Assembly: GCA_963728365.1 (NCBI GenBank)
Contig: CAVSJI010000002.1
Location: forward strand, 49,270 to 113,269
DNA: 64,000 nucleotides
Direction of reading: 5' to 3'
Origin: an uncultured Solirubrobacterales bacterium
Lineage (GTDB): Bacteria > Actinomycetota > Thermoleophilia > Solirubrobacterales > 70-9
Each line of letters starts with the position of its first letter. Positions within the stretch are counted from its first letter, which is position 1. Shown here one piece after another: positions 357 through 62,797 of this stretch. The notes beneath the pieces were generated by a model. The model ran no database searches, was not told where the DNA came from, and saw nothing but the letters and a program-made list of their open reading frames with translations. Made by a program: the position numbers and the translations under genes.

Positions 357-417
357 TCTCGATCAGACGCCTGAAGGCGCGGCGCGCCCGGTGGCGACGC
401 TTTTCTCCCAATAAAAT

Positions 418-1206: not shown

Positions 1207-1213
1207 GCCGGCC

Positions 1214-9568: not shown

Positions 9569-9587
9569 CGGTCCCGCGTCGCCCCAT

Positions 9588-11582: not shown

Positions 11583-11657
11583 GACCGCATCCCCTCTCCT
11601 CCCTGCACACACCGTAGTACGCAAAGTTCGGGAGTGTCAACTCGTAGCATCCGGGGC

Positions 11658-44210: not shown

Positions 44211-44324
44211 ATACGCGAAGACTGTCTATGGTGTACCGGTCGTCGGTGAGTTGAGGGCGCGACCGGAGGAGCGCCATGGTGGCAGACAGGAGCCAGACGA
44301 AGGAAGCGGAGCCGTGGGGAGACG

Positions 44325-47300
44325 GTGCCGGTGCCTGAGGCGGGCGACCTCGGGCCGCTCGGTGACCTGGCGACGGCGCTCGGGCTGACCGACGCCGCCG
44401 GCAAGTTCAGGAAAGGCTGGCTCGACGACCCCGGGGCGGCACTCGGCGAAGTCCTCTCCGACGACGAGCAGCGCTCCGCGCTGCTCGCCTTCTGCGACGA
44501 GGTGCTCGGCGGCGGCGAGCGCGAGACCGACGCCGAGGGCCGCACCTGGCTGCCGCTGGTGAGCGACGAGGAGGCGGTCGTGCTGCACGCGGTCGTCGAC
44601 GATCGCGACGCCGGCTACGTCGCGATCGGCGCCGGCCTGCGGCTCGCCGGCGAAGACCCGCAGGCGGCGGCCCGACTCCAGGTGCCGGTTGCCCGCGTGT
44701 CGCGCAACGGCGCCCCCTCCCCCGGCCCGATCTTCCTGGGCCAGCCCGGAGCGCGCGCCACGGCCTCGATCTCGATCTCGTTCGCGGGGGAGCCGCGACC
44801 CGGCGAGGCGCACCTGGGCGGCCTGGAGATCGGCTTCGAGGTGCCGACCGCAACCGACGACCCCCAGGAGCCGGCCGTCTCCCTCGCACTGCTCGGCCTG
44901 CAGCTGCCCGGCGTCGAGGCGCCACGCGACCTGCGCATCTCGACCGGCAGTCCGAGCGAGCTGGACGACGCCCTGCTCGAGCTGGTCCTCGGCCTGCTGC
45001 GCAACCAGGCCGCCGCGGGGGGCGGCAAGGCCGGGGCCCTGGCCCGCCTCGCCGGACTCGCCGGAGAGGGAGCGGTGCCACCGCTTCCGGCAGGCGAGCT
45101 GGCCGAGCAGGGGGGCCGCCGGCTGGCCGCCTGGCTGCACGCCACGTTGGCGGCGCCGGAGTCCCGCAGGGAGTGGCTCGCGGCGCTCGCCGAGCTGCTC
45201 GGCGGCGAGCTGCCCGCCGGCGAGGAGGAGCTGCGGTTGAGCGTCGGCGCCGCCGAGGTCAGGGGCGGGATCGAGGTCTCGACCGACGCCGGCGGTCAGC
45301 CGCTGCTCGTTCCCCGCCTGGCCCTGCAGGTCGCCGAGGGCGAGGCGCGCGCCGTCCTGCGCGCCGACCTGCTGGCCCTGAGCCCGGCGTCCGGCGCGGC
45401 GCGGGCGCTGCCGGCGCTGTCCGCCTACGCGCAGCTCGGCGGGGACGAGGGCGGCAAACCGCTGCTCGACGGCGATCCGGGCGTCGGCTCGCTGCGGGCC
45501 GGGATCGAGATCGACGCCCAGCGGCAGGCCGCGATCCTGCTCGCCGCCGAGCGAGTCACGGTCGCCGGCGCCAGCTTCGCGACGCTCGACCTGACCAGCC
45601 CCGAGGCGGTTGTCGAGGCCGCCGGGTCGAGCCTCGGCACGGTCGCCGCCGGCCTGCTCGAGGGCGCCGGAGAGGCGGCCGCGGCGCTGGGCCGGCTGCT
45701 TGGCCTGGCACCACCCAAAGGCCACCAGAGCGTGCCCGCGATCGACCCCGTGCGACTCTTCGAGAACCCGGTCGCCGCCCTGCGCGAGCACTGGCGGAGC
45801 CTGGTCGAGGACGAGCAGACTGCGATCCCGAGCCTGCTCGAGGACGCCCGCGGCCTGCTCGCCGGCGCCGGCGCGAGCGCAGCGAAAGCCGCCGGCGCCG
45901 GCACCGCCGCGGACCCCTGGCGGGTGGCGCTCCGCGAGACGACCGAGCTGCGCGCGGTCCGCGACCCGGCTGGCGCGCTGACGCTCTCGCTGGGGATCGC
46001 CTCCGAGGTCGAGGATCTGGGCAGCGGGCGCGCCGCGATCTCCGCCGATCTGGCGCTGGCGATTGCCCACCTCGACCTCGCCGCCGGCTCGGCCGAGTTC
46101 CTCGCGACGGCCGAGCTGGCGCTGGGGGCTCGCAGCAAGCGGCCCGCCTCCGCGACGATCGCTCTCGCCGGCGCGAAGCTGAGCGCCGAGCGGCTCGGCC
46201 TGCGCGCCGCCTGGACGGCCGCAGCCGGCCTCGAGGTGGCACTCGACGCGCCGAACCCGTCATTGCAGGCGGGCGGCGCCAAGAAGGCCGTGGACCTGGC
46301 CGACCGCGAGACGCTCGAGCGCATCGCCGGCCTGCTGGCCGGGCTGGAGGACGGCGCTTGGCCGGCCGAGGCGGCGACGGCGCTGGGCTGGGCCGCCGAG
46401 GCGGGCAAGGCGCGGCTCTCACTCGAGAAGCTGATCGAAGACCCGCGCGCGGCGCTCGTCGATTGGCTGACCGCGGCGCTCGCCGAGCGCGAGGCGAGAG
46501 CGCTGAGCGCGGCGGCAGCGGCGCTCGCCCGGGTGCTCGACCTGAGCGCCGACCGCAGTGCCGCGGTGGAGGGGACCGGCAAGCCGGATGACCCCTTCGT
46601 CCTGCGCCTCTCCGGCGAGGCGGCCGGGGTGGCGCCGATCGCCTGGGTCGAACCGCAGGAGAAGCCGAAGCAGCTGCGGCTCGGCCTGCGCCTGCCGGTC
46701 GACGCAGGCGAGGGAGCACTCCTCGCCCCCGGTCGGCTCGACCTCGCGCTGGCCGCGATCGACCTCTCGGGAGCCGAGCCGGCGATCCTCGTCGACCGGC
46801 ACCTGACCGCGGTCCTCGACCTCTCCCGCGAGGGTGCTCCGCTGGTCAGCGAGGGAGAGACGGAGCTACGCAGCGTGCGGGCAGAGGTGCGCCTGCCGCT
46901 GGACGGCGGTGGGGCCGCCGCCTCGCTCGAGCTCGTCGACGCGGCGGTCTTCGGCGTGCGCCGCGAGCGCTGGCCGGTCGGTGCCGAGGACCCTGCCCTG
47001 CCCGAGGTCCGCACCATGCTCTCCGCCGCCCTGCGCCGGCTTGCGAAAGCGCCGGTCGGCGGGCTGCTCGCCGGGCTTGGACTGCTGGCCGACGGCGGTC
47101 TCGACGGGGACGCACTCGACGAGCTGCTCCACGACCCCGCCGGCCTGCTCGCCGCCTCGCTGGACTCGCGCCGCGAGGACCTTCAGGAGGCCGCCGACCG
47201 CCTGCTCGGCGGTCTGCCCGGTGTCGCGGTCGATCTCGAGGCGCGGCGCCTGAGCGTCGAGCTCGGCGGTGAGGACGGTCCCCTCTCCTGGTCGGCGCGG

Positions 47301-50300
47301 CTCGAGGTCGGCGGCGACGGGGCGGCGAGCGCCACGGCGACGGTCGGCTCTCCGGGAACCGGGGCCGCCGGCGGCTTCGAGCTGCGCTTCGCCTCCGACC
47401 CGGTCGTCTGCACGGCGCTGCGCCACCTGCCGGGGGGCAGGGCCCGCGAGATCCGCGTCTGGCCCAACCCGGACGGCGACGCCCTCGCCCGGCTGCTGCC
47501 GAAGGCGGTACTCGCGGCGATCGCCCGGCGCGGCCTCGAAGAGGCGCGGCGCCTCGACGCGCAGGCCAAGCCCGCGCTCGACGCGGCGCTCGGTGCGGCC
47601 GGCCTGCTCGACGGGGACCGCGTGCCGCTGCCGCTCGGGCTGCTCGACGACGCCGGCGGCTGGCTCGCCCACCCGGCGGCGCTCGGCGGCAACAGCCTCG
47701 ACCCGGCCAAGCTCGGCGACCTGCTCGACGCCCTGAAGCCGCTGCTCGGCGCCACCGGGCCGGCCTCGAAGCTCGAGCCGGCGCCGGGTCTGACGATCGA
47801 AGCCGGCAAGAGCGACGGGGTGCCGCGAGTCGGGATCAGCCTCGACAGCGACGCCCTGCTGCCCAAAGCCGGAAAAGGCGAGCGCCCGGTCCTGACCGCG
47901 AGCGGCGGCATCGTGCTCGCCGCCGAGTCCCATGCGGAGCTCAGCCTGAGCGCGGCGCTGCCGGGGCTGGGGACCGCGGCGGCGCAGGCAAACGGCGACA
48001 TCTCGGTGGTCCTGCGGCGCAAGGGCCTGCCCGACCTTCCCCTCTACCCCACCTCCCCGGGGCTCGGCGATCTCGCCGATGCGGGGGTCGAGTCGGTGCT
48101 GCCCCGGGTGCTCGACGCGCTCGCCGACCCCGCCGCGAAAGGCGCCGGCGAGCGGGCCGGCGCCCTGGTCGGCGCGCTCGGCGACCTGCTCGACCTGCGT
48201 CCTGGGGGATCCTTCGACCGCGCCCGCATCGCGGCGCTGGCCGCCGACCCCGCCGCCGCGCTGCGCGCCCGACTCGAGGCTGCCGGCGCTTCCGGGCTGG
48301 ACGAGGTCGCCGCGGCCTTCGACGCGGCGCTGCCCAAATCCGCCACGGTCGCCGTCGCCGGCGGCAGGCTGCGGCTGGAGCTCGCCCAGGCGACGATCGA
48401 GCTGCGACCGAAGCCCTTCGAGCTGGCGGTCGCCGGCGAGTTCACCGGGATCGAGGCGATCGAGTCGGCCTCGCTCGACCTGCGCCTCGACGAGGACGGG
48501 CTGGCCGAGCTCTCGGCGAGCGCCGGGCCGGGGGCGATCGATGCGGGAGGCGCGACCTTGCGTCCGCTGGCGACGCTCGCCGCCGGCTCCTCGCCACCCG
48601 GCGGCCGCCGGGTGGAGATCGGCCTCGGCGACGGCGAGGACGGCAGCTTGCGCGCCCGCTGGGACCTCGAGACCGGCAAGGTGGTGGCGCTCGCGATGAC
48701 GGGGGACGCCGCCGACGCCGAGCCCGCGGCGGTCGCCGGCGCGGCGCTCACGGCGCTCGCCGAGCTGGCCGCCGGCGTCGCCCTCGCCGCCGAGGAGACC
48801 CAGAGCCTGCTCGGCAAGGCGGTCGGCAAAGCCACCGCCCGCGACCTGCTCGCCGGCGTGCTGCTCGACGAGAGAGACCCCCGTCGGGCGATCGCCGGTC
48901 TCTTCGACTTCGAGGCGCTGCTCGCTCGGCTGCGACGACTGGCCGTCAACGCCGGCGAGGCCGAGCCGGCGCTGAGGATCGAGGGCTTCACCGTCGGCCT
49001 CGCGACGCAGAACGGACGCCTCGGGCTGAACCTCGACCCCGGCGGCCGGGTCACCCTGCTCGAGGGCGAGGTCACGGTCTCGCTCGAGGCCGACAGCCGC
49101 TGGATCGAGGACTCGCCCCCGCCCGGCCTCTTCCTCGGCGCGCTGTCCGGCGAGGAAATCTCACCGGCGATCGCCTGCGGGGGCCTCGGGCTGCGCTTCT
49201 CGCGCCCCGCGGGTCCGCTGCTCGACGCGGGCGTCACACTGGGCTCGCTCGCCCTGCACGCCTATGCCGCGGTCGAGCCCGGCGCCGGGGGCGCCGAGGT
49301 CTCGGGCGGCGTGCGGATCCAGCTCGACGAGCTCGGCATCCCAGTAAGCAGCGCCGGCGGCAAACAGAGCAACCCGGTCGGCCGGGGGATGCTCGGCGGC
49401 GCCGGCGGCAAACGGGCGCCGGCGCCCGCCTTCAGCCCGGCGCTTGCCGTCCAGCACCGTCACGGCGAGGAGGGAGCCACGGTGCGCCTTTCCGCGGGCG
49501 ACGGCGCCGGACCGTGGTGGCTGCCGATCCAGTCCGCTTTCGGGCCGCTCTACCTCGAGCGCGCCGGCCTCGGGGTCGAGGCCGGCGCCACCGGGCCGCA
49601 GAGAATCGCCGTGCTGCTCGATGGCAAGGTCTCGCTACTCGGCCTCAGCGTCGCGGTCGACGGCCTCGGGCTCGGTTACAGCGTCTCCAGCGAGAGCTCC
49701 TTCGCCGACCCCGAGGCCTGGAGCGTCGAGCTCGCCGGGCTGGCGATCGACGCCGACCTCGCCGGCGTCACTCTGGTCGGCGGCCTGCGCAAGGTCGAGA
49801 CCGAAAGCGCGGAAGGCAAGTCGGTGGAGTACATCGGCTCGCTCACCGGTCGCTTCTCGGTGTACGGGCTCTCGGTGCTCGGCGGCTACGGCGAGGTGCT
49901 CGAAAACGGCCGCCGCTTCTCGACCTTCTTCGCCTTCGGAGCGATCAACGCGCCGATCGGCGGACCGCCCGCCTTCTTCGTCACCGGGATCGGCGGCGGC
50001 GTCGGCATCAATCGCGGGTTGAAAGTCCCCACCGACCTCTCCCGCCTCGGCGACTCGGCCTTCATCCAGGCGCTCGACGCCGGAGCCGATCGCAGCGACG
50101 ACCCGATGGAAGACGTCGTCAGGCTGGGCAACGAATTCCCCGCGGTCGAGGGCGAGCTCTGGTTCGCGGCCGGGATCAGCTTCAACAGCTTCGCCCTGGT
50201 CGAAGGCGTCGCCGTGATCTCGGTGGCGGTCGGCAAGGGGCTCGAAATCGCCCTGCTCGGACTGGCGCGAATGGCGCTGCCCCGCCCCGAGCGGGCGCTG

Positions 50301-52688
50301 GTCTCGATTGAGCTGGGCCTGGTGGCCCGCTTCTCCAGCGAGGAGGGCGTGCTCTGGATCCAGGCCCAGCTGACAGACAACTCCTGGCTCCTGCACCGCT
50401 CCGTGCGGCTCACGGGGGGCTTTGCCTACGCCAGCTGGTTCAAGGGGGAGAAAGCCGGCCAGTTCGTGCTGACGATGGGCGGCTACCACCCCCGCTTCCC
50501 GAGCGAGGGCTATCCGCAGGTTCCACGCCTCGGCTTCTGCTGGCAGGTGGGCAGCAGCATCGTGATCAAGGGCGAGTCCTACTTCGCCCTCACCTCGGAG
50601 GCGATCATGGCCGGCGGCCTGCTCGAAGCGGCGGCCGAGTTCGGCCCGGCCTGGGCGAAGGTCAGCTTCAGCGCCGATGGCATCGTCTACTTCGACCCCT
50701 TCAAGTTCGAACTCGACGTGCACGCCTCGATCTCGGCCGGGATCACGATCGACGTCTGGATCGGCGAGATCACGATCTCGATCCACATCGGAGCCGGCAT
50801 CCACCTCGAGGGGCCCGAGTTCCACGGCGCCGCCAGCTTCGAGGTCGGACCGGCCGAGCTGACGGTTCGCTTCGGCGACCAGACCCCGCCCGATGCGCCA
50901 ACCCTGCAATGGGACGAGTTCGTGATCAAGTACCTCGAGGATGCGGGCGGCGGCGTGGCCCGGGTGCTGAGCGCGACAACCGGAGGCGGCGCCATACCGC
51001 CCGCGCCCACCGCCGGCGGCAAGGAGAAGGCGACGGCGGACGGCTCTCTGCAGCGTCCCTTCGAGGTGCTCGCCGAGTTCGAGCTGACCGTCGTCTCGGC
51101 CGCGCCCGTGGTCAGCTTCGTGTTCGGCGCCGAGGAAGCGGAGCCGCGGACGGTGCCCCACAGCGAGCGGCTGGGCATCGCGCCGGTCGGCATCCGCGAA
51201 CTCCAACCGAAGCTGTGGCTGCGGCTCGAGGTGGTCGAGCTCGACGCGGCGGGCGGAACCGCGCCGGGGACCGAGCTGATCGGCCAGCTCGACCCCCAGC
51301 CGATCGGCGACGGTCGCTTCCCGATCGGCATCTGGGGCCCGGCTCGCAGCGAGGATGAGAAGCAGGTGCCGAGCGGCGAGATGATCGAAGCCGGTCAGGG
51401 CGCCCGGCTCGCCGCGAAGGCCGTGCTGCGCGACGAGCTGCCCGCGGAAGTCGCCTACGAACGGGTCGAGATCAACGAGCAGAAACCGCGTCACCCGCTG
51501 CCGCTGCTCGACGAGGAGCGCTCGCGCGGCGACCTGCTGCGCTCCGCCAGACCGCTGGCCCAGGCGGTGCCGGCCGGCGTCTCGGGCAGGGCGGCCCTCG
51601 GCCAGGCGCGCGAGTGGCTGGCGGCCGGCGGCGCCGGCCGCACCAGCGTCGCCGCCTACGCCGGCGAGCGGGTCGCGCCGCCGCGGCTGGGCTCGCTGAC
51701 CGAGGGCCTCGTCGGGAGCACGCTGCCGGCGGCCCCGGTGGCTGGGCCGGTGGAGGCCGCCCCCAGCCCGCTCGACACCGCCGTGCGACCGCCGCGGGCG
51801 ATCGCGGTGCTCGGCCAGGGCCGGGGGCTGGGCGGCAGCAGGCCGATGGCCGGGCTGACCGCGGCGCTGGCGAAGGGCGAGCCGCTGGCGCTGCGCTTCG
51901 GCGAGATCCTCGTCATCGAGATGCCCAACGCCCGCCGCGACATCGACGCGAGCGCCCCCCGGCCGCGGCTGCGCACCGGCGGCAGCGCCCGGATCGCGGT
52001 CCTCGGCATGGGCGGCCAGCTGCTCGCGGACACCGTCGCGACCGAGCTCGAGATCCCGCAGGGCGCCGAGCGCATCGCGGTGCTCAACGCGGGGGCGGCA
52101 GCCGAGCAGGGCGGCCTGCTCGGCTGGCACACCGGCCAGCAGCTCGCCTACGTCGGCTGGGGAGCCGCCCCGGTCGCCGGCGCCGTCCTTCAGGCCCCGG
52201 GCGGCGGCGTCAGGCTCGGCCCGCGGCGCGCCACGGCGGCCTGGATCGACGCGCCGGCGCTGACCGCGGCGGCGCCGATCGTCGAAACCCGCTTCAACGC
52301 GGCGCCGCTCGCGGTGGCGGTCGGCCTCGACCAGGCCGAGGCGGCCGGCGAGCCGCATTTCGAGCTGCTGGTCTCCGGCGCGAGCAGAGAAGGCAAGGAG
52401 CCAATCGCGGTCGAGACCGGCGCCCGCATCTACCTCGTCTACGCGCTGAAGCCCGACGCCGGCGCGGAGGCGGTGACGCTGACCGCCGCGCGACTGCCCG
52501 GCTGGAGCGTCGGCGCCGTCCTCGCCTCGACCGGCGCCGAGGCGAAGGAGCTTGCCGCGCAGCTGCCCGAGCAGGCGCCCGACGCCCTCCTGCAACCGCT
52601 CGTCGCCCCACCCGCCGACGGCCCGTTGCCGCAGCTGAGCGTCGCCTGGATCGCCGGCGACGAACCCGACCCGAGCCCCAGCCGGTGA
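44325..52688 (+). CDS. Giant hypothetical protein (2787 aa), no family recognised
   Basis: Uninterrupted high-GC3 frame with normal residue composition. The N-terminal two thirds are built from recurring ~190-230-aa units. A conserved-looking core at ~49180-50900 contains TGIGGGVGINRGL and GGYHPRFPSEGYPQVPRLGF. GTG start per the track; the exact start is uncertain. Confidence 0.8.
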   Translation: MPVPEAGDLGPLGDLATALGLTDAAGKFRKGWLDDPGAALGEVLSDDEQRSALLAFCDEVLGGGERETDAEGRTWLPLVSDEEAVVLHAVVDDRDAGYVAIGAGLRLAGEDPQAAARLQVPVARVSRNGAPSPGPIFLGQPGARATASISISFAGEPRPGEAHLGGLEIGFEVPTATDDPQEPAVSLALLGLQLPGVEAPRDLRISTGSPSELDDALLELVLGLLRNQAAAGGGKAGALARLAGLAGEGAVPPLPAGELAEQGGRRLAAWLHATLAAPESRREWLAALAELLGGELPAGEEELRLSVGAAEVRGGIEVSTDAGGQPLLVPRLALQVAEGEARAVLRADLLALSPASGAARALPALSAYAQLGGDEGGKPLLDGDPGVGSLRAGIEIDAQRQAAILLAAERVTVAGASFATLDLTSPEAVVEAAGSSLGTVAAGLLEGAGEAAAALGRLLGLAPPKGHQSVPAIDPVRLFENPVAALREHWRSLVEDEQTAIPSLLEDARGLLAGAGASAAKAAGAGTAADPWRVALRETTELRAVRDPAGALTLSLGIASEVEDLGSGRAAISADLALAIAHLDLAAGSAEFLATAELALGARSKRPASATIALAGAKLSAERLGLRAAWTAAAGLEVALDAPNPSLQAGGAKKAVDLADRETLERIAGLLAGLEDGAWPAEAATALGWAAEAGKARLSLEKLIEDPRAALVDWLTAALAEREARALSAAAAALARVLDLSADRSAAVEGTGKPDDPFVLRLSGEAAGVAPIAWVEPQEKPKQLRLGLRLPVDAGEGALLAPGRLDLALAAIDLSGAEPAILVDRHLTAVLDLSREGAPLVSEGETELRSVRAEVRLPLDGGGAAASLELVDAAVFGVRRERWPVGAEDPALPEVRTMLSAALRRLAKAPVGGLLAGLGLLADGGLDGDALDELLHDPAGLLAASLDSRREDLQEAADRLLGGLPGVAVDLEARRLSVELGGEDGPLSWSARLEVGGDGAASATATVGSPGTGAAGGFELRFASDPVVCTALRHLPGGRAREIRVWPNPDGDALARLLPKAVLAAIARRGLEEARRLDAQAKPALDAALGAAGLLDGDRVPLPLGLLDDAGGWLAHPAALGGNSLDPAKLGDLLDALKPLLGATGPASKLEPAPGLTIEAGKSDGVPRVGISLDSDALLPKAGKGERPVLTASGGIVLAAESHAELSLSAALPGLGTAAAQANGDISVVLRRKGLPDLPLYPTSPGLGDLADAGVESVLPRVLDALADPAAKGAGERAGALVGALGDLLDLRPGGSFDRARIAALAADPAAALRARLEAAGASGLDEVAAAFDAALPKSATVAVAGGRLRLELAQATIELRPKPFELAVAGEFTGIEAIESASLDLRLDEDGLAELSASAGPGAIDAGGATLRPLATLAAGSSPPGGRRVEIGLGDGEDGSLRARWDLETGKVVALAMTGDAADAEPAAVAGAALTALAELAAGVALAAEETQSLLGKAVGKATARDLLAGVLLDERDPRRAIAGLFDFEALLARLRRLAVNAGEAEPALRIEGFTVGLATQNGRLGLNLDPGGRVTLLEGEVTVSLEADSRWIEDSPPPGLFLGALSGEEISPAIACGGLGLRFSRPAGPLLDAGVTLGSLALHAYAAVEPGAGGAEVSGGVRIQLDELGIPVSSAGGKQSNPVGRGMLGGAGGKRAPAPAFSPALAVQHRHGEEGATVRLSAGDGAGPWWLPIQSAFGPLYLERAGLGVEAGATGPQRIAVLLDGKVSLLGLSVAVDGLGLGYSVSSESSFADPEAWSVELAGLAIDADLAGVTLVGGLRKVETESAEGKSVEYIGSLTGRFSVYGLSVLGGYGEVLENGRRFSTFFAFGAINAPIGGPPAFFVTGIGGGVGINRGLKVPTDLSRLGDSAFIQALDAGADRSDDPMEDVVRLGNEFPAVEGELWFAAGISFNSFALVEGVAVISVAVGKGLEIALLGLARMALPRPERALVSIELGLVARFSSEEGVLWIQAQLTDNSWLLHRSVRLTGGFAYASWFKGEKAGQFVLTMGGYHPRFPSEGYPQVPRLGFCWQVGSSIVIKGESYFALTSEAIMAGGLLEAAAEFGPAWAKVSFSADGIVYFDPFKFELDVHASISAGITIDVWIGEITISIHIGAGIHLEGPEFHGAASFEVGPAELTVRFGDQTPPDAPTLQWDEFVIKYLEDAGGGVARVLSATTGGGAIPPAPTAGGKEKATADGSLQRPFEVLAEFELTVVSAAPVVSFVFGAEEAEPRTVPHSERLGIAPVGIRELQPKLWLRLEVVELDAAGGTAPGTELIGQLDPQPIGDGRFPIGIWGPARSEDEKQVPSGEMIEAGQGARLAAKAVLRDELPAEVAYERVEINEQKPRHPLPLLDEERSRGDLLRSARPLAQAVPAGVSGRAALGQAREWLAAGGAGRTSVAAYAGERVAPPRLGSLTEGLVGSTLPAAPVAGPVEAAPSPLDTAVRPPRAIAVLGQGRGLGGSRPMAGLTAALAKGEPLALRFGEILVIEMPNARRDIDASAPRPRLRTGGSARIAVLGMGGQLLADTVATELEIPQGAERIAVLNAGAAAEQGGLLGWHTGQQLAYVGWGAAPVAGAVLQAPGGGVRLGPRRATAAWIDAPALTAAAPIVETRFNAAPLAVAVGLDQAEAAGEPHFELLVSGASREGKEPIAVETGARIYLVYALKPDAGAEAVTLTAARLPGWSVGAVLASTGAEAKELAAQLPEQAPDALLQPLVAPPADGPLPQLSVAWIAGDEPDPSPSR

Positions 52689-52690
52689 CG

Positions 52691-54403
52691 ATGAAGCCCG
52701 GACACTTCAAGCTCTTCGACTCCGCGGTCCCCAAGCTGCGCGCCGGCAAGTACGACCTTGTCGGCAACCACGAGCTGGGCGGACCGACCGAGGAGCTGCG
52801 CACCCGGATCCGGGTGCGCTCGGTCCGCTACAAGCTGCCACCCGAGCAGATCCTCTCGGTCTGGCCCCCCGCCAACGACGAAGGCGCTTTCGAGAGTCGC
52901 CTGCCGCAGATCGCGATCCGCCGGCGAACGCTCCCCTGGGAGCGCGACCCGGGCTCCGGGGCACAGGCGACGACCCCGTGGCTGGCTCTGGTGGTGATCG
53001 CCGAGGACGAGGGCACGGTCTCCGACGAGGTCCCGGTGGCCGAATGCGCGACCCCCGACGCGCATCTCGATGGCGACGCCGACTCGCCGACCGGCGTATA
53101 CCTCGGCGTGACCAAGCCGGTGATCGACAAGGTCTTCCCGACGATCGAGGATCTGCGCTACCTGACCCACGTGCGCCAGGTCGACCTCCACGACACCGAG
53201 CTGGCGCTCGGCGACGACGACGGCTTCCTCGCAATGGTGCTGGCCAACCGCCTGCCCCAGTTCGATCGCGCCGCCGGCAAGCCGGTCCGCTACCAGGCCT
53301 GCCTGATCAACCTCGAGCAGCAGCTCGGCGTCTTGCCCAAAGCCGTAACCCCGAGCAGCACCTTCGAGATCGCAAGCGAGAGCCTCAAAGTGGCGATGGA
53401 GATCAAGCGGCAGGCGACCGCCGTCAAAGCCGAGCCGGCGGTCGTCACCCGCAGGATCGAAGACGTGGCGCTGCGCACCGAGCCTGGCGAGCTGGCGGGC
53501 GCCGTGCGCCGGGAAATGAAGGGCAACTTCACGATCCCGGTCGAGCAGATCGTCGGCAAGCTCTACCGCTTCCCGGTCCTCGCGCACTGGTCGTTCACCT
53601 GCACCGGCGCCGGCGACTTCGAGTCGTTGATGCAGGGACTCGACGTCGGCCTGCTCGGCACCGCGCCGCCGCCCACCGTGGAGGACCCGCAGGCCGCCGA
53701 CCCGGCGGCGCCGCCCCCGCCACCGGCGGCGCGGCCGGCGCCGGAGCTGGCCGAGACCGGCCACGTCGGCCTCGGCCGGCGCAGCCGCCGAGGCGACGCG
53801 ACGCGCGCCTGGTACCGGGGCCCGTTCGTTCCCCACCCCACCGAACGCGACCTCGCTGGGAGAGACGGCGACGGCGAGCGCCTCGCCTTCGCCCACGTCA
53901 GCGACCAGCTGCGCTGGGCGATCCCCGACGGCCGCGAGGAGCTCGGCTATGCGGCGGCCTTTGAGATCGGCAGGCTGCTGACCCTGGCTCGGCCCCTGGT
54001 TGTCGCGACGCTGATGCGCTGGCGCAGCGAGCACTTCGGCGCCGAGCGCGCCCGCGCCAAGGCGGAGCTGAGCCTCGCCGGACTCTCGGAGAAAGCGAAG
54101 CGAGAGCTCGGCGCCGAGTCGGGGGGCGAGCTCAGCCTCGGTCAGGTGCTCGGCCGCGGCATCCTGCTGCGGGCCGCAACCGAGCCGGACGCGATGCTCG
54201 GGCCGAGCCGCCCCCTGGTCGATCCCGGCCGGCCGCTTGAGGGCATCGACCGGCCGCTGGAGCAGATCCTCTCCGAGGGCTTCGAGATCCCCGTCGAGAA
54301 GGTCCGCCGACTGATCGAGAACCCGCTCGCCGGCCCGGGCCTGACCGACGTCCCGCGGATCGAAATCCCGAACCGCCGTCCGATCAAACGAGGAGGACCA
54401 TGA
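52691..54403 (+). CDS. Hypothetical protein (570 aa), second gene of giant operon
   Basis: ATG 52691 lies 2 nt after the ORF1 stop. Blocks TLPWERDP, TPWLALVVIAEDE, YLTHVRQVD, YRFPVLAHWSFTC. Pro-rich linker PAAPPPPPAARPAP. Confidence 0.75.
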   Translation: MKPGHFKLFDSAVPKLRAGKYDLVGNHELGGPTEELRTRIRVRSVRYKLPPEQILSVWPPANDEGAFESRLPQIAIRRRTLPWERDPGSGAQATTPWLALVVIAEDEGTVSDEVPVAECATPDAHLDGDADSPTGVYLGVTKPVIDKVFPTIEDLRYLTHVRQVDLHDTELALGDDDGFLAMVLANRLPQFDRAAGKPVRYQACLINLEQQLGVLPKAVTPSSTFEIASESLKVAMEIKRQATAVKAEPAVVTRRIEDVALRTEPGELAGAVRREMKGNFTIPVEQIVGKLYRFPVLAHWSFTCTGAGDFESLMQGLDVGLLGTAPPPTVEDPQAADPAAPPPPPAARPAPELAETGHVGLGRRSRRGDATRAWYRGPFVPHPTERDLAGRDGDGERLAFAHVSDQLRWAIPDGREELGYAAAFEIGRLLTLARPLVVATLMRWRSEHFGAERARAKAELSLAGLSEKAKRELGAESGGELSLGQVLGRGILLRAATEPDAMLGPSRPLVDPGRPLEGIDRPLEQILSEGFEIPVEKVRRLIENPLAGPGLTDVPRIEIPNRRPIKRGGP

Positions 54404-55398
54404 AGGCGAACGCGTTCAGCATCCGCTACGAGCAGGTCAAAGCCACGCAGGACGGCGTGCTCAGCGCGCCGGTGACCGAGCTGGCGACGAGCGAGGAGAG
54501 CTCGCGCGGCGACCGGGTCGTCCCCGGAGCGCTGCGCTCCTGGCTCGCCCAGCTGCGCCTGCTGCAGAACCTGCCGTTCGCCTACCTGGCCCCCGACAGC
54601 GACCTGCTGCCGCCGGAGTCGATCCGCTTCTTCCACCTCGACCGCGCCTGGACCGATGCCCTGGTGCAGGGGGCGCTCAGCGTCGGCACGGTGTCGAGCG
54701 CGGACCGGGCCGAGCTCGAGGGCCTCTACAGGTGGATCCGCGACGAGATCGACGAGGAGGAGCGCGCCCTGCGCTCTCGACCCGAGGAGCCGCCCGGCCC
54801 CGGACCGGCCGGACCGATCACCGGCTTCCTGCTGCGCAGCCGCGCCGTTTCCGCCTACCCCGGCCTGCACGTCCGCGCCTACCGCGCGGACACGGTCGAC
54901 GACAAGGAGATCGTCCCCGAATCCGACCCGGACAGGCTGCGACTGCTGCGCCTCGAGCGGCTCGCCCCGGCGGTCCTGCTGGCGCTCTTCGACGGGGTGC
55001 CGAAGCTGGTCCACCTGGAGGAGCCCCGGGTCGGAGTCCAGTTCGGGGTGAGGCTGGAGAAGCCGAAGGACGGCGGCGAGACCCGCTCGGCCTGGGTGCC
55101 GGCGCGCGACGCGAAGACGGCCGAGGCGCTGACGCCGGAGGTGAAGGTTCCGGTGACCTTCCGCAAGGACTCCCCCGGCGTGCTCGACCTGCAACGGACC
55201 GGGGCGGAATTCGCCAACAAGGGCGCCAACCTCAGCGCAGACCTGGATGGCGCCGAGCTCGCCCTGGAGATGATCCGCTACCCCTTTCGCCAGATCTTCG
55301 GCGAGGAGAAGCAGCCCCGGCCGGAGCTCGTCTTCAGGCCGACCATCGGGGCGCGGCTCACCGACCTGATCGTCGCCTTCGGAGGAAAAGATGGCTGA
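54400..55398 (+). CDS. Hypothetical protein (332 aa), third gene of giant operon
   Basis: ATGA overlap, preceded by GAGGAGGA. Blocks LPFAYLAPDSDLLPPESIRFFHLD, GFLLRSRAVSAYPGL, LLALFDGVPKLVHLEEP. Confidence 0.75.
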   Translation: MKANAFSIRYEQVKATQDGVLSAPVTELATSEESSRGDRVVPGALRSWLAQLRLLQNLPFAYLAPDSDLLPPESIRFFHLDRAWTDALVQGALSVGTVSSADRAELEGLYRWIRDEIDEEERALRSRPEEPPGPGPAGPITGFLLRSRAVSAYPGLHVRAYRADTVDDKEIVPESDPDRLRLLRLERLAPAVLLALFDGVPKLVHLEEPRVGVQFGVRLEKPKDGGETRSAWVPARDAKTAEALTPEVKVPVTFRKDSPGVLDLQRTGAEFANKGANLSADLDGAELALEMIRYPFRQIFGEEKQPRPELVFRPTIGARLTDLIVAFGGKDG

Positions 55399-58300
55399 TC
55401 CCAAGGCCCGGCTCAGCGGCGTGAAGATCGACCCAGCCTGGCTGGAGACGGTCAAGCGCCGCGCCCTCGAGGAGGGACTCGCCCGCGCACCGCAGATATC
55501 GCCCCCGCCGCGCCTGCTGGTGCCGATCGACGTGCAGGCTCTCTACGTGCCGGAAGGCAGCGAGGAGTCCTTCGCTCGGCTTCCCTTCGCGCTCGCCGGA
55601 AGGGACGGCGAGCCGCCGCCGGCGATGCCGAAGCCATTCGCCGAGGGCGAACGGCGCGAGCCGGGCGTCCACCTGCGCTGGGCGCTGCCCGATGCCCTGC
55701 TGCGGGGCCGGCTCGAGAACCCCGACGGCGGCAACCGGCTGGCGCTGCCGGCCCTGCCCGACCGCTGGGCCGTGCTGCGCATCCTCGCCCCCAAGGGCGC
55801 CGCCCGGCCGGCGATCGACGGCTGGGTGCTCGACGCCGCCGGCGCTCGGGCGGTGCCGCTCGAGGCCTGGCCCGCCGGCGCCGAAGGGGCGCCGCAGGAG
55901 GGTCGCACGGTGCCGCCGGGGGAGCTGAACGGCAGCGCCGGCGGCTCGCCTGCCTGGACGGCCGTCTACGACGCGACCCGCAATCGCTTCGCCTTCCACG
56001 ACCCGCTCGATGGCCTGCAGGAGCTGGAGCAGAAGAGCGGCGCCGTGGCGAATGCGGCGCTCTACGTGGTCGCCGGCTGGCACTCGGACGAGGCCGCCGA
56101 CCCGCTCGCCGCCGGCGATCCGCCGGCGCCGCTCGCCGAGCGGCTCGGCGAGCTCGGCTGGCGCCTGGCGGGCCACGGCAAGGGCGCCCGCTCGCTCGGC
56201 GGACCGCATCTGACGCTGCTGCAGGGAGAGATCCACGGCGTCCCGGTCCGCGGCGAGGCGGCCACCGACCAGCGCCCCGACCCGACCGCGATCGAGCTCG
56301 CGCTTGGCAGCCACGAGAACGACCTGATCGCCACCCTCGCCGGGCTGAAGACGGCCGAGGACCCCGCCGCTCGCCGCAAGCTCGAGCGGCTGCTCTCGGC
56401 CTTCACCGGCCAGCTTCTCTCGCGACTCGACAGCCCCGACGGCCTGGTCGAGATCGAAGAGCAGGAGCACGGCATGGCGTTCGCCTCGCGACCCGGGGGA
56501 CAGGGCCCGCTCGAGCGCCTGCGCGCCGCCGGGGAAGCGGCGCCGCTGCCGGCGGGGCAGACCGCCCGCTCGCTCGCGGCGAAGCCGTCCGACGCCGACG
56601 GCGCGCCCAAGCCGCGCTCGCGGGCACGCCGCGAGGAGCGCGTCGCCGGGCAGCAATCGCTTACCGGCGACGTCGCCTTCAGCCCGCTGGTGCATTCGCG
56701 CGCCGAGCTCTTCCCGCTCCTCGCCGAGCCCCCCGCCGTCGCGACCGAGATGCTCGCCGCCGCGGAGGGGCGCAACCCGCGCCCCGAGTATTCCGACGAG
56801 CCGCGCGAGCAGCGGCGGCCGGCGCCCCGCTTCCACCACCCGATCGAGCCGCAGGTGGCGGTGCGCGGCCCGAAGCGCAGCCTGATCGCCCACGGCGACG
56901 GTCGCTTCTGGGAGGACGGCAAGCTGGTCTGCCGCTGGCCCTCCCAGACCGCCGAGAGGGTCGGCGACGCGGTCGACGGGAGCGAGCTGATCCCCGAGCT
57001 CGCGGGCGAGGGCCTGCCCGAGGAGGTCCTCGCGGTGGCCCGCGACGCGCTGGTCAAGGACAGCTTCCTGATCGAGTGGCTCGCCGCCGCCGCCGCGAGC
57101 CGGGTCGAGAAGGCAAAGTCGAGCGCGGTGCAGGGAGCGGTGCGCAAGCTGCTGCTGGCCGAGACGGCGATGCGGGTGAGCGCTGCGGGCGTCTTCGACG
57201 GCGGCATCGGCCGAGGCGCGCTCGGGGCGGCGGGCGAAGAGCGGCTCGCGGCGCTCGTCGCCCATGAGCAGGTGCAACCCTTCTCGCGCGTCGACGGCGC
57301 CGAGGTCGACCCGGTCGGGTTGACCATCTGGTCGCAGCCGTGGATCCCGCTCTTCCTCGAGTGGGAGGTCGAGGCGGCCGTCGAGGACCGCTTCGAGGAC
57401 TGGCCGCTGGGCCCGATCGACCTCGAACCGGTCGAGCGCCGGGGAGCCGGCAAACGCCGCAAGATCGCCGGGCGCAGCCTGCTCGGCAGCGGCCCGGCCA
57501 AGACCCTGAAGGCGAGCCTCGACGCCTGGGCGGAAGCGGAGCAGGAGCGCGACAGGGCGGGCGACGGCGAAGCCGACGAAGAGACCGAACGCCTGCTGGC
57601 GAGCCTCGGCGAAACCAGCAGAGACCTCGACGTGGTCGCCGCCGGCCTCGACACGCTGCACGACGAGCTGCTCGGGCTGCCGGTCGAGGACTACGGCGTG
57701 CTCAAGCCGCGCGCCGGAGCGAAGCTGGGCAAGCCGGCACCGGTCGCCGCGCCGCAGCTGACGATCGCCGGCGAGCTGAAGCTGACCAGGGCGCGGCTGG
57801 TCGACGCCTTCGGCCGCACCCTCGAGCTGCCGGTGGACGAAACCCGGACGCCGGCCCGCTCGGCGATCGAGGGGCGACCGGGCGCCCTGCGGGTGCGCCC
57901 GCGCCTGCTGCGCCCGGCGCGCTGGATGCTGCGCTTCGCCGACCCCGCCGATCCGAGCGCCGCAAGCCGCGAGGCGACCCTCGACCAGGTCGAGCCGGCG
58001 CGGACCGTCAACCCGGTGGCCGGCTTCCTGCTCCCCGACCACATCGATGAGGCGCTGGAGGCCTTCGACACGGCCGGACGGCCTCTGGGCCAGCTGATGC
58101 ACGAGCCCTTCGGCGGCGGCGTGATGTGGGAGATCGCCCCGGGGCGCGCCGGGCCGCCGGACGCGCCCCCCGGGCACGACCTGGCCGAGGCCACCCGGAT
58201 CGTCGGCGAGGTCGCCGCCGGGCTGCTGGCGGCCGACGCCCGCGCCCGCGACGGCAAGCCGGCGGGCGAGGAGGAGGACTCGGCCCTGACCGCGCTGCTG

Positions 58301-59095
58301 CGGGCGATCGACACGACGCTCTGGTCGATCGACAGCTTCGCCTCGTTCGGCAACGAGCACATCGCCGGCCTGGTCGGCCGGCCCGTGGCGGTGACCCGCG
58401 CCCTGCTGCGGCTCGAGCTCGACGACGACCTCGACGAGCTCGACCTGAGCGGCGCCAAACGGCGGGCGCTTCGCGAGCGGGCGTACGCCGAGCTGGCCGA
58501 GAAGAGCTTCCCCGTGCGGCTCGGCGAGCTGACCCGCGCCGACGACGGGCTGCTCGGCTTCTTCGTCGACGACGACTACGGCCGCATGCGGGTGGTCGAC
58601 AAGGCGGTCCGCGACGGCGCCCTGGAGAGCGGCCGCTTCCGCGGCCACTTCGGCGCCTACGGCGAGACGCCGCGAGTGCCGCCGACGCGCCCGATCGATC
58701 ATCCGTACCTCGAGGCCGAGGACGAGCTGCGCCTCAAGCCCGGGGAGACGCTGCGGCTGACCCTGCTGATGCACCCGATGGGCAAGTGCCACCTGACCTC
58801 CGGGGTGCTGCCGCGCAAGTCGGTGCAGCTGGCCCGAGACTGGGTCAATCCGGGCCTGGCGGCGATCTCGCCCTCGGTGCGGGTCGGGCCGGTGCTGATC
58901 GAACCCGGCGAGGTGCGGCTGCCGAAGGTCTCCTCGCTGCCCGAGGATCAGCTCTGGACCAGGCGCGACAGCCCCGCCACCTGGAAAGACGACCCGATCG
59001 TCGCTGCCACCCAGGCGGCGCTGCTGCCCAAGCAGCCGGCCGCGATCGAGGAAGGCTACATCCGGGTCGCCCCGCAGAACGGCGCCCAGCCCTGA
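55391..59095 (+). CDS. Hypothetical protein (1234 aa), fourth gene of giant operon
   Basis: ATGGCTGA overlap, preceded by GGAGGA. Blocks VHLRWALPDALLRG, PDRWAVLRI, SQPWIPLFLEWEVE, GFLLPDHIDEALE. Confidence 0.75.
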   Translation: MADPKARLSGVKIDPAWLETVKRRALEEGLARAPQISPPPRLLVPIDVQALYVPEGSEESFARLPFALAGRDGEPPPAMPKPFAEGERREPGVHLRWALPDALLRGRLENPDGGNRLALPALPDRWAVLRILAPKGAARPAIDGWVLDAAGARAVPLEAWPAGAEGAPQEGRTVPPGELNGSAGGSPAWTAVYDATRNRFAFHDPLDGLQELEQKSGAVANAALYVVAGWHSDEAADPLAAGDPPAPLAERLGELGWRLAGHGKGARSLGGPHLTLLQGEIHGVPVRGEAATDQRPDPTAIELALGSHENDLIATLAGLKTAEDPAARRKLERLLSAFTGQLLSRLDSPDGLVEIEEQEHGMAFASRPGGQGPLERLRAAGEAAPLPAGQTARSLAAKPSDADGAPKPRSRARREERVAGQQSLTGDVAFSPLVHSRAELFPLLAEPPAVATEMLAAAEGRNPRPEYSDEPREQRRPAPRFHHPIEPQVAVRGPKRSLIAHGDGRFWEDGKLVCRWPSQTAERVGDAVDGSELIPELAGEGLPEEVLAVARDALVKDSFLIEWLAAAAASRVEKAKSSAVQGAVRKLLLAETAMRVSAAGVFDGGIGRGALGAAGEERLAALVAHEQVQPFSRVDGAEVDPVGLTIWSQPWIPLFLEWEVEAAVEDRFEDWPLGPIDLEPVERRGAGKRRKIAGRSLLGSGPAKTLKASLDAWAEAEQERDRAGDGEADEETERLLASLGETSRDLDVVAAGLDTLHDELLGLPVEDYGVLKPRAGAKLGKPAPVAAPQLTIAGELKLTRARLVDAFGRTLELPVDETRTPARSAIEGRPGALRVRPRLLRPARWMLRFADPADPSAASREATLDQVEPARTVNPVAGFLLPDHIDEALEAFDTAGRPLGQLMHEPFGGGVMWEIAPGRAGPPDAPPGHDLAEATRIVGEVAAGLLAADARARDGKPAGEEEDSALTALLRAIDTTLWSIDSFASFGNEHIAGLVGRPVAVTRALLRLELDDDLDELDLSGAKRRALRERAYAELAEKSFPVRLGELTRADDGLLGFFVDDDYGRMRVVDKAVRDGALESGRFRGHFGAYGETPRVPPTRPIDHPYLEAEDELRLKPGETLRLTLLMHPMGKCHLTSGVLPRKSVQLARDWVNPGLAAISPSVRVGPVLIEPGEVRLPKVSSLPEDQLWTRRDSPATWKDDPIVAATQAALLPKQPAAIEEGYIRVAPQNGAQP

Positions 59096-59111: not shown

Positions 59112-60914
59112 TCAGCGGTCGAGCACGTTGCAGACGCCGACCGACGTGCCACCCGAGGCGCCGATGTCGACCGAGCTGCCCCCCACCCAGATCGAGTTGG
59201 CGTCGAGCATCGGGAAGGAGATGAAGGCGGCGGCGGCCCCCTCGGTGACGCCGGCGGTGCCGTAGCTGAGCACGGTCAGCCGGCAGAGGGCGCCGTCGAA
59301 GTCGTCGATCGTCGCCGCGTAGGGAACCTTGAACGCGGTCCACGCCGCCTGCGGGTCGGCGCCGGGCAGCGTGAGGCCGATGACCAGGCCGTAGCCGACG
59401 TACTTGAAGCGCCAGCGGGTGTCGGGGTCGTCAGGACGGCGGATCTCACCGTCGGCGGTCATCACCCCGACCTCCTCCCCGGCGCTGGCGCTGGCGACCA
59501 GCCTGATTTCCCAATCGTTCGGGTGCGCGGCCGGCGCCGGCGGGGTCTGCTCGGGCAGCAGGTTCGCGGCGACCCGCATATAGCACTCCAGCTCGACGCT
59601 GCGGTTGAGCGGCTCCTCGCGGCCGATCCGGTCCTCGATCGGATCGCTCGAGCCAAGGCCGCGGGGCGGTTCGCCGATGCGGTCGGCGATCGGCGCGAGA
59701 TGGTTGGCGGCCGCTTCGGCGCGGAGCAGCGAGAGCTCCTGGTTGACCGGCTCACCCCCGGTCTGGCTGGCGCGGCCGAGAATCCGCTCGATGCGCAGGT
59801 CTTCGACGTTGGAGCCGTTCGCTTCGGCGACGATCCGGTCGAGGATTTCGACGTGCTTCGGCTTGAGATCGGTTCCGTAGACGTCGAAGTTGGCGAGCAG
59901 CACCCGCCCTCCCGCCCAGCTGGCGCCCGCGCCCTGCGGCACGTCGATCTCGCGGTAGTAGGCCGTCCCCGGGCCGGTCGACACCGGCGTCCGTTTTCCG
60001 GGGGGAGCGTCCGGCACGCCGTCGCCGCCATCGTCGTCACCGCCCTCCACCAGGCCCAGCTCCCGCCGGGTTTCGGGGCCGACCCTGCCGTCCACGTTCA
60101 GGCCCCGAGCTTCCTGGAAGGCGCGCACCGCTTCCTCGGTGCGTTTGCCGAACTTGCCGTCGACTTTGCCCGGGTCGAAGCCGGCTTCCTCGAGCGCCCG
60201 CTGCGCGTCTTCGACCGCTTTCCCCTCGGAGCCGCGGCTCAGGACCGAGCCGCTCGCCGCGCCGTGACCCGGGCGGCGGGCGCCCTGGCCGAGCCAGCGC
60301 CCGAAGTGCTCCTCACCGAGGCGGCAGCGGTTGCGGTCGACCCCGCCGCCGATCCCCTGCAGCGACCCTTTCGAGCTGTACTGCCAGATCAGGGCTTCCG
60401 GCCAGGCCTCGGGGACGTAGCGGTCCGGGACCCAGCCGTCGTCGTTGGCCTGCACGTAGGCGGGCAGCCAGAGGGGGCAGCCGAGGTCGTCCCGCGAGGC
60501 GATCACGTCGCGCCAGAAGTGGCCGCTGTAGATCAGCAGCCGCTGGTCGGGAAAGCGAGTCCGGACCGCCTCCACCCAGGCGGCGGCAGCGGCGTGGATC
60601 TCGGCGCCGCTGCGCTCGTCCTGCTTCTCGATGTCCAGCGCGAAGAAGTCCCCCGCCTGGACGCCGCCTTCGTCGATCCGGTCGCCGAAGTTGGTGGCCT
60701 GCGCCTCCGGCGTGGAGGTCATGCGCAGGAAGTGGTAGGCGCCCCGAAAGGGGATCTCGGATTCGCCGATTCCCGCCCAGTTCGCCGCGAAGCGCGAATC
60801 GGTGAAATCAGACCCCTCGGTCGCCTTGGCAATCGCAAATGAGATGCCCTGCCCGCGCAGGGACTCCCAGGCGACCTCGCCCTGGTGGTGCGAGACGTCG
60901 AGGCCCTCGATCAT
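59112..60914 (-). CDS. GH25 muramidase + peptidoglycan-binding (PG_binding_1-like) + OmpA-like domain + unassigned C-terminal domain; no signal peptide
   Basis: MIEGLDVSHHQGEVAW...FAIAKATEG...YHF...DIE (GH25). GKAVEDAQRALEEAGFDPGKVDGKFGKRTEEAVRAFQ (PG binding). ILGRASQTGGEPVNQELSLLRAEAAANHL (OmpA_C-like). ATG 60914 is preceded by AGGAGG. Confidence 0.8.
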   Translation of the reverse strand: MIEGLDVSHHQGEVAWESLRGQGISFAIAKATEGSDFTDSRFAANWAGIGESEIPFRGAYHFLRMTSTPEAQATNFGDRIDEGGVQAGDFFALDIEKQDERSGAEIHAAAAAWVEAVRTRFPDQRLLIYSGHFWRDVIASRDDLGCPLWLPAYVQANDDGWVPDRYVPEAWPEALIWQYSSKGSLQGIGGGVDRNRCRLGEEHFGRWLGQGARRPGHGAASGSVLSRGSEGKAVEDAQRALEEAGFDPGKVDGKFGKRTEEAVRAFQEARGLNVDGRVGPETRRELGLVEGGDDDGGDGVPDAPPGKRTPVSTGPGTAYYREIDVPQGAGASWAGGRVLLANFDVYGTDLKPKHVEILDRIVAEANGSNVEDLRIERILGRASQTGGEPVNQELSLLRAEAAANHLAPIADRIGEPPRGLGSSDPIEDRIGREEPLNRSVELECYMRVAANLLPEQTPPAPAAHPNDWEIRLVASASAGEEVGVMTADGEIRRPDDPDTRWRFKYVGYGLVIGLTLPGADPQAAWTAFKVPYAATIDDFDGALCRLTVLSYGTAGVTEGAAAAFISFPMLDANSIWVGGSSVDIGASGGTSVGVCNVLDR

Positions 60915-62704: not shown

Positions 62705-62797
62705 TGCCGAAGGCTACGCCGCCCGGTTTCGAACCGCGCGCGGCCGGGGTACTTTGGTGGGCGAACCGCGACACACCCTCGAGCGAATGGAGGACGG

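Follow-up and report, generated by a model that had tools for sequence, protein, structure and literature searches.

A conserved, translationally coupled operon of a giant DUF6603 protein and three unnamed partners in an uncultured Solirubrobacterales bacterium, with a tentative link to cell envelopes

A stretch of 64,000 nucleotides from an uncultured Solirubrobacterales bacterium (contig CAVSJI010000002.1; hereafter the window, meaning the whole 64 kb analyzed, with a GC content of ~74%) harbors four consecutive open reading frames (ORFs) on the plus strand that form the operon described here. ORF1 (44325-52688, +) starts with GTG and encodes a giant, presumed scaffold protein of 2787 amino acids (aa); the NCBI/ENA entry has 2785 aa, i.e. 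a GTG start at 44331, which leaves the start uncertain by two codons. ORF2 (52691-54403, +; 570 aa) belongs to a large family without a name, ORF3 (54400-55398, +; 332 aa) encodes its probable partner and starts within an ATGA overlap, and ORF4 (55391-59095, +; 1234 aa) specifies a multi-domain alpha/beta protein for which no structural relative was detected. ORF1 and ORF2 are joined by TGA-cg-ATG (52686-52693, read from the sequence), ORF2 and ORF3 by ATGA (54400-54403, preceded by GAGGAGGA), and ORF3 and ORF4 by ATGGCTGA (55391-55398, preceded by GGAGGA). The four ORFs are genuine genes and constitute one translationally coupled operon. Upstream, a divergent intergenic region of 114 bp (44211-44324), the presumed promoter region of the operon, separates ORF1 from an AAA_22+TPR gene on the minus strand (start at 44210). 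A sigma-70 consensus site was not found in these 114 bp, which says little at 74% GC; promoter and terminator scans were uninformative, and the intergenic region had no match in Rfam. A convergent gene ends 16 bp past ORF4.

The G+C fraction at third codon positions (GC3) amounts to 0.93, 0.91, 0.93 and 0.94 for ORF1 to ORF4, respectively, which is of the coding type for a genome of 74% GC, whereas the long antisense ORFs show values of 0.91-0.93 at first and 0.74-0.82 at third positions, the mirror pattern of non-coding shadows. An earlier sequence-only reading of this DNA had drawn the same distinction, from strongly G/C third positions and residue composition, and its ORF coordinates and lengths (2787, 570, 332 and 1234 aa), its junctions and its GGAGGA-type ribosome-binding sites proved exact. 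It had also reported that signal peptides, Walker A, and protease and RHS-YD motifs are lacking, with which regular-expression searches and hydropathy agree: Walker A and HExxH are absent from ORF1-4, YD dipeptides number 0-1 per protein, and neither a signal peptide nor a twin-arginine motif was seen by eye at the four N-termini. Its statement that no cluster of transmembrane segments is present stands for ORF2-4, where no 19-residue segment reaches 1.6 on the Kyte-Doolittle scale, and is to be softened for ORF1, which contains hydrophobic stretches, all of them mild, the strongest within its DUF6603 domain. Compared with one another, the four proteins show no significant similarity, nor was a domain of any known enzyme recognized in them.

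Homologues that span the full length, annotated as hypothetical only, number in the hundreds to thousands for each of the four proteins (40-67% identity). Among 185,579 species, each represented by one genome, 157 loci were found (40-55% identity across phyla); the carriers are unrelated bacteria of soil and water. Carriers in the Actinomycetota include Streptomyces, Kribbella, Microbacterium, Mycolicibacterium stellerae, and Trebonia; those in the Pseudomonadota include Variovorax, Caldimonas, Piscinibacter, Pseudoxanthomonas, and Aliiroseovarius; further loci lie in Acidobacteriota, Gemmatimonadota, and Chloroflexota, so that at least five phyla are represented. Wherever enough flanking sequence was available, the order 1-2-3-4 on one strand is kept (58 of 58 loci; tblastn with the four window proteins), and an additional fifth gene is present in 51 of these 58. 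The same layout is found in the named genomes of Streptomyces davaonensis, Roseisolibacter agri, and Piscinibacter koreensis, and the gene calls of relatives display stop/start overlaps of 1, 4 or 8 nt, as in the window. Mean column identity of the core is 46-53% across phyla, and the window proteins are ~50% identical to alphaproteobacterial and to actinobacterial homologues alike. This near-equal identity across phyla, together with the rarity of the system, therefore points to horizontal spread under strong purifying selection. No relatives were detected in IMG/VR or among GenBank phages, and a phage or prophage origin was rejected on these grounds.

The window operon is a reduced form of a larger conserved operon. 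The common, long form comprises six genes in fixed order: a small gene (~160-240 aa) without a Pfam match that is coupled to the giant, the giant itself (~3300 aa), genes for proteins of ~680, ~335 and ~1290 aa, and finally a gene for a BNR beta-propeller protein of ~1150-1290 aa, which is called the fifth gene here after its position behind ORF4. The small upstream gene adjoins the giant in loci L086-L088 and L097-L099; neither it nor the propeller gene occurs anywhere in the 64-kb window (tblastn). The short, four-gene form is found in the window and in L004, its closest relative (67% identity in ORF4), as well as in a group made up of a Solirubrobacterales metagenome-assembled genome (L006) and the related metagenome contigs L089 and L090; the proteins of this form are somewhat shorter than those of the long form. 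The proposal of a four-ORF system thus identified the conserved core correctly and took a reduced version of the usual six-gene operon for the whole. A failure of the four families to co-occur in other genomes, which the sequence-only reading had named as speaking against such a system, is contradicted by the constant order and strand described above.

ORF1 is a clear member of a named family. Its residues 1735-2204 (49527-50936, +) match Pfam PF20248 (DUF6603) with 397 bits (E=1.5e-118; gathering cut-off 27 bits), and of its homologues, 170 matches among the candidates scored, nearly all contain PF20248. The view that the four proteins belong to no recognizable family accordingly fails for ORF1 and persists for ORF2-4, the partners without any family name; as judged from profile matches, formal membership is restricted to DUF6603. 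This is a Pfam family of no known function, NCBI labels the relatives ‘DUF6603 domain-containing protein’, and neither the name DUF6603 nor the accession PF20248 was mentioned in papers of the library searched. Its alignment has the invariant motifs TGIGGGxGINR and GGYHPxF, and ~25 long antiparallel beta strands of 10-19 residues each, arranged as a meander, are predicted. AlphaFold models were obtained for ORF1 residues 1590-2787 and ORF4 residues 1-1200. The ORF1 model is moderate (predicted local distance difference test (pLDDT) 61.9 overall), with values of 70-90 in the DUF6603 part and 80-90 in a second, C-terminal beta-rich domain (residues ~2490-2780; 51792-52664, +), which in S. davaonensis (L086) is a separate gene with a 271-aa product. 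The best Foldseek matches of this model (E ~1e-4) are the SlpA barrel of Deinococcus, porins, ushers, TonB-dependent receptors, and the lipid-binding belt of ApoB100. Large outer-membrane barrels (SlpA, ushers, porins) are hence the nearest fold neighbors of the meander, but the TM-score is 0.14 and the root-mean-square deviation (rmsd) 22 Å; in the model, the likeness is one of topology and is not evidence of homology. ORF1 moreover lacks a hydrophobic N-terminus or signal peptide, unlike such barrels, and DUF6603 also occurs in single-membrane actinobacteria, Firmicutes, and haloarchaea. Because ORF1 has no signal peptide and the family is present in organisms without an outer membrane, DUF6603 is not regarded as an ordinary outer-membrane protein.

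Apart from ~350 residues near residue 800, ORF1 aligns end to end with the ~3300-aa giants of the long form. The segment missing from ORF1 corresponds to a PGAP1/lipase-like alpha/beta-hydrolase domain that is embedded in the long-form giants (e.g. residues ~975-1045 of P0247 and 1061-1138 of P0357). Its AHS nucleophile is kept only in a distant, Streptomyces avermitilis-type subfamily, most other long forms having Gly or Ala in place of the Ser. An alpha/beta-hydrolase as the catalytic heart of the system was therefore rejected for the window, the domain being degenerate in most long forms and deleted here. The domain appears to be an enzyme turned structural part and subsequently lost in the lineage of the window. 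Internal repeats were not detected in ORF1 by self-BLAST.

The three partners likewise belong to conserved families. ORF2 has 2169 matches, and with its family profile 3336 clusters (50% identity) were retrieved from 1.84 billion representative proteins; RRRTLPWER, DxxDTELAxGDDDGF, and ANRLPQFD are among its invariant motifs. More generally, all the conserved-looking blocks that the sequence-only reading had picked out coincide with alignment columns that are invariant, or almost so, within the families. ORF2-4 have no match in Pfam, NCBIfam, PADLOC or PHROGs, and searches of PDB sequences with ORF1-4, with a profile of the whole giant and with an ORF3 profile returned nothing. Two sub-cut-off hits, EACC1 in ORF3 (found in 1 of 45 family members) and PrgJ in ORF2, were put down to chance, and a scan of unusually long ORF2-family members revealed no informative domain fusions. 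In the distant variants L091, L092, L093, L094, and P0406, ORF2 and ORF3 are fused into one polypeptide; it follows that ORF2 and ORF3 probably act together physically, and such a fusion, as read from the sequences, is good evidence for this cooperation. ORF4 has 520 matches at 44-67% identity. From 71 aligned sequences, a confident model was predicted for its residues 1-1200 (pLDDT 81.3, predicted TM-score 0.80), which has no neighbor in the PDB (Foldseek; best E=0.16, TM-score 0.05) or in BFVD (best E=1.2). No significant similarity was detected between ORF4 and the fifth gene, which had been considered as paralogues.

Envelope-directed hydrolases or binders without signal peptides recur 3' of this otherwise invariant core. 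The fifth gene encodes a BNR/Asp-box beta-propeller with SxDxGxSW motifs, whose profile matches PDB 3b7f (E=2e-8); some members match Sortilin-Vps10 or BNR. According to a hidden Markov model of the family, it is present in at least 106 of 136 loci, a lower bound since the ORF filter passed over some lower-GC loci. A PG_binding_1 match in one BNR-type member could not be located by motif search and was given little weight. A Pfam scan of 131 other downstream ORFs yielded mostly unrelated housekeeping genes, and a metzincin protease was the sole recurrent family. It measures ~360-376 aa, has no signal peptide, and bears the signature HEFGHALGMIHE; 21 loci have its gene in the orientation of the operon, in most cases immediately behind the propeller gene and in L030 and L169 immediately behind ORF4. 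The metzincins (9062-10174 in L164, and 20 other loci) share a conserved N-terminal KICSP(Y/F)VPG, a motif with one cysteine that is reminiscent of cysteine-switch pro-peptides and hints at a protease kept latent. Operons of the S. avermitilis type carry at position 5 an 857-aa protein ending in Amidase_2 (E=1.8e-14), the gene of which overlaps the ORF4 stop. In the window itself, the convergent gene past ORF4 is a candidate accessory gene (59112-60914, -): its product combines GH25 muramidase (5.5e-34), PG_binding_1 (3.4e-20) and OmpA-like (1.7e-6) Pfam matches, lacks a signal peptide, probably starts at M18 of the listed ORF, and ends in ~180 uncharacterized C-terminal residues. L004 has a GH25+PG_binding_1 gene in the same place (62% identity over 284 aa), with different other flanking genes and with Peptidase_C70 as the C-terminus instead. 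The C-terminus of the GH25 protein looks modular or polymorphic from this comparison.

Compact, distant versions of the system reside on megaplasmids of Streptomyces, Embleya, and Kitasatospora and on Paenibacillus plasmids. Here, the above-mentioned fusion, with an ORF2-like N-terminal and an ORF3-like C-terminal part, comes after a DUF6603 protein of 900-1400 aa. Of four loci that were read closely, L091, L092, and L094 have an ORF4-like protein next; L093 yielded none, and L092 has no DUF6603 gene beside the fusion. Haloarchaeal plasmids (Halobellus, Salinigranum) harbor a DUF6603 gene followed by an ORF2-like gene. None of the variants examined has a signal peptide or membrane anchor. On the Salinigranum marinum plasmid (L096, 17505-24714), the DUF6603/ORF2-like pair precedes a gene for a 2322-aa ‘BGTF surface domain-containing’ protein and one for a lamin-tail-domain protein, neighbors that hint at a cell-surface link in archaea. 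As a separate observation, the Paenibacillus polymyxa plasmid (L094) carries at 1-4221, ~9 kb upstream of the compact DUF6603 cluster, a polymorphic-toxin-like stretch with a gene resembling ‘phage baseplate assembly protein V’, a pentapeptide-repeat protein, a GH-E nuclease fragment, and an ankyrin-repeat protein.

Several known machines share traits with this operon. Tc (ABC) toxins are likewise multi-gene operons with giant subunits devoid of secretion signals, and a GH25 endolysin-like gene lies beside the operon in the window. Tc toxins without secretion signals assemble in the cytoplasm and are released via a lysis cassette that contains an endolysin (PMC10847048, PMC10847046). In contrast to them, the system shows no Pfam match to TcA (VRP1, TcA_TcB_BD etc.), TcB or TcC at E<=1 and no RHS/YD repeats, and no Tc structure is among the top 50 Foldseek matches each for ORF4 and ORF1 1590-2787. 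Lysis cassettes of the type 10 secretion system comprise an endolysin, a holin and a spanin; here, the GH25 gene encodes an endolysin-like protein without a signal peptide, and no holin or spanin was found beside it in the 1.2 kb upstream. Extracellular contractile injection systems (eCIS), tailocins, and type VI secretion systems also have large operons, cytoplasmic assembly, 3' effector genes and horizontal spread in bacteria, including Streptomyces, and archaea. Unlike these, the operon has no gene for a sheath, tube, gp25, VgrG, baseplate-J, PAAR or AAA+ protein (Pfam, PHROGs), no Walker A, no viral relatives, and no BFVD fold match for ORF4. The umbrella (Umb) particles of Streptomyces consist of a very large subunit and beta-propeller lectin subunits; UmbC combines a twin-arginine translocation (TAT) signal with eight ALF repeats and coiled coils and ends in a polymorphic toxin domain, UmbA has a trypsin-like domain and a lectin, and UmbB is small (PMC11062931). 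The long form of the DUF6603 system also has a beta-propeller subunit, but ORF1 lacks a TAT motif and internal repeats (judged by self-BLAST, with no ALF-specific model), and there is no trypsin Pfam match. In PADLOC-DB 2.0, none of the defense models matched ORF1-4 at E<=1. Confident matches to Tc toxins, eCIS, substrates of type VII secretion systems or catalogued defense systems, which the sequence-only reading had named as the results that would speak against an undescribed system, were thus not found in profile searches or in fold searches with ORF4 and ORF1 1590-2787.

Taken together, we are highly confident that the operon represents a genuine, hitherto undescribed multiprotein system. 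Confidence that it is also new in kind is moderate, because its function is deduced from gene context and fold topology alone. The earlier suggestion of one mRNA, of coupled synthesis and of a structural or toxin-like assembly rather than a metabolic pathway fits the kept overlaps, the ORF2-ORF3 fusion and the 3' hydrolases. As a tentative reading, which we hold to be short of probable, the system may be a horizontally spread assembly acting on cell envelopes by an envelope-breaching mechanism. In the cytoplasm, the products of ORF1-4 would form a large complex of fixed stoichiometry, with ORF1 as the scaffold, the ORF2-ORF3 pair bound to it, and ORF4 completing the core. Through its surface, the DUF6603 beta-meander would insert into membranes or bind lipid, and the 3' genes (BNR propeller, metzincin, Amidase_2 fusion, GH25 neighbor) would supply envelope-degrading or envelope-binding activities. 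As a device for delivery or lysis, the whole would be of a non-phage, toxin-complex-like kind, similar to Tc toxins in logic, not in ancestry. In favor of an envelope link count these four 3' genes, the lipase-like domain of the long giants, and the fold neighbors of DUF6603. More doubtful still is the further step that this constitutes a new class of machine, in which a giant beta-sheet or barrel scaffold breaches membranes and deploys or releases signal-peptide-less hydrolases (protease, amidase, muramidase) and a glycan-binding propeller against envelopes; such a class would be unrelated to phage tails, Tc toxins, and known secretion systems, would have passed between bacteria of at least five phyla, and would have a simpler relative in haloarchaea.

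A number of findings weigh against an envelope-breaching device. The system has no characterized homologue. Its link to peptidoglycan hydrolases consists of three loci and two enzyme types, and that of GH25 to the operon of two loci, with the gene convergent and outside the operon; a small ORF with a hydrophobic segment (holin-like) is absent from the 1.2 kb upstream of the GH25 gene. The system is present in archaea, which have no peptidoglycan, and in single- and double-membrane bacteria, and any role at the envelope must consequently be a generic one. Unlike typical effector slots, the BNR gene is not polymorphic but conserved, and no immunity-like gene was identified at the loci. The fold matches of DUF6603 are topological only (TM-score 0.14, rmsd 22 Å) and stem from a moderate model (pLDDT 62). 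Beyond the modeled parts, ORF2, ORF3 or the N-terminal 1600 residues of ORF1 could contain a cryptic known fold.

The same observations can be read differently. Rare and patchy occurrence (157 of 185,579 species representatives, 40-55% identity), which speaks for horizontal transfer, the location of distant variants on megaplasmids, and toxin-antitoxin or mobile neighbors, namely HEPN/nucleotidyltransferase (L090), Fic (L091), and a type IV secretion coupling protein (L003), would all suit a defense against phages or plasmids, e.g. by abortive infection, in which the giant would form a lesion in the membrane and infected cells would be killed by the hydrolases. We consider this unlikely, as PADLOC models match none of the four proteins, nuclease, NTPase or other sensor-like domains were not detected, 15-22 kb is unusually large for such systems, and the flanks are mostly housekeeping or metabolic rather than defense islands. 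An assembly serving the producer's own envelope or surface (for wall remodeling, as an appendage or as a structure of development), in which the hydrolases would open up space in the wall, is likewise improbable in our estimation. Flagella and secretion systems have dedicated peptidoglycan lytic enzymes for this purpose, the core conservation (46-53% column identity) fits structural parts that interlock, some accessory genes are directed at glycans and peptidoglycan, and the archaeal variants lie beside genes for BGTF surface and lamin tail domains; yet no subunit in any lineage examined has a signal peptide, lipobox or transmembrane anchor, and most species lack the system even within carrier genera, as would not be expected of a housekeeping function.

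Still less credible is an intracellular scaffold or bulk lipid-transfer protein resembling the beta-groove giants of the VPS13/AsmA type, with ORF2-4 as adaptors. ORF1 is a giant with a long antiparallel beta sheet and no secretion signal, and the ApoB100 lipid-binding belt appears among its Foldseek matches. However, TamB, AsmA, VPS13, and ATG2 are absent from the top 50 Foldseek matches listed, and such a protein would leave the protease, amidase and muramidase genes unexplained. AsmA-like proteins carry an N-terminal membrane anchor, which ORF1 lacks. Finally, high-GC DNA does yield long spurious ORFs, many of which lie on the opposite strand here, and the four frames might be chance ORFs or decaying remnants without any functional unit. 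This notion can be practically dismissed: chance is excluded because each protein has hundreds to thousands of homologues (40-67% identity), and full length of these homologues, coding-type GC3, kept gene order and the confident ORF4 model refute it as well.

The remaining genes of the window are presented for orientation. The divergent AAA_22+TPR_12 gene (41205-44210, -) encodes a 1001-aa, STAND- or regulator-like protein in which no DNA-binding domain was detected; it was rejected as a conserved partner, not being kept beside the operon at other loci. It is followed by a FAD/BBE oxidase gene (39703-41103, -) that adjoins the gene of an extracytoplasmic function (ECF) sigma factor (39017-39601, -); the latter overlaps by 4 nt a downstream ORF (37833-39020, -) whose 395-aa product has no Pfam match and is possibly an anti-sigma factor. 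The other giant ORF (1214-8725, -) had been considered as a paralogue and turned out to be an ordinary modular polyketide synthase unrelated to the operon (2503 aa; AMP-binding loading domain, ACP, KS, AT, DH, and KR); a metallophosphoesterase gene (8726-9724, -) lies next to it and a PucR-type regulator gene (10395-11636, -) nearby. A 584-aa ORF (31544-33298, -) has a sub-cut-off match to the catalytic domain of class I arginyl-tRNA synthetases (E=1.6e-4) and may be a divergent paralogue. Upstream of the GH25 gene, the region 61035-62810 (-) shows a coding-like minus frame (61035-~61900) that is out of frame with a LigD_N/acylphosphatase gene (61937-62704), and a ferritin-like ORF (62363-63313, +) overlaps the latter; a frameshift or mis-set start codons could explain this arrangement.

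If the envelope-breaching reading is true, a machine of 15-22 kb and four to six genes has been overlooked in hundreds of environmental and culturable bacteria, with carriers in Streptomyces, Kribbella, Mycolicibacterium, Variovorax, Pseudoxanthomonas, and Aliiroseovarius. Culturable strains with the operon are S. davaonensis JCM 4913 (BN159_7447 cluster), Kribbella rubisoli VKM Ac-2540, Variovorax fucosicus, Pseudoxanthomonas daejeonensis DSM 17801, Mycolicibacterium stellerae CECT 8783, and Aliiroseovarius zhejiangensis KCTC 42443. The reading would give DUF6603 and three large families without a name their first biological context, among them ORF4, a confidently predicted protein of ~1,200 residues without a neighbor in the PDB or BFVD. 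It could also disclose a novel way for proteins devoid of secretion signals to reach or harm envelopes, with a bearing on interbacterial antagonism, lysis and secretion biology, and possibly on tools for protein delivery. Even if the proposed mechanism is wrong, the gene set is sharply defined and present in culturable strains, which makes it directly testable.

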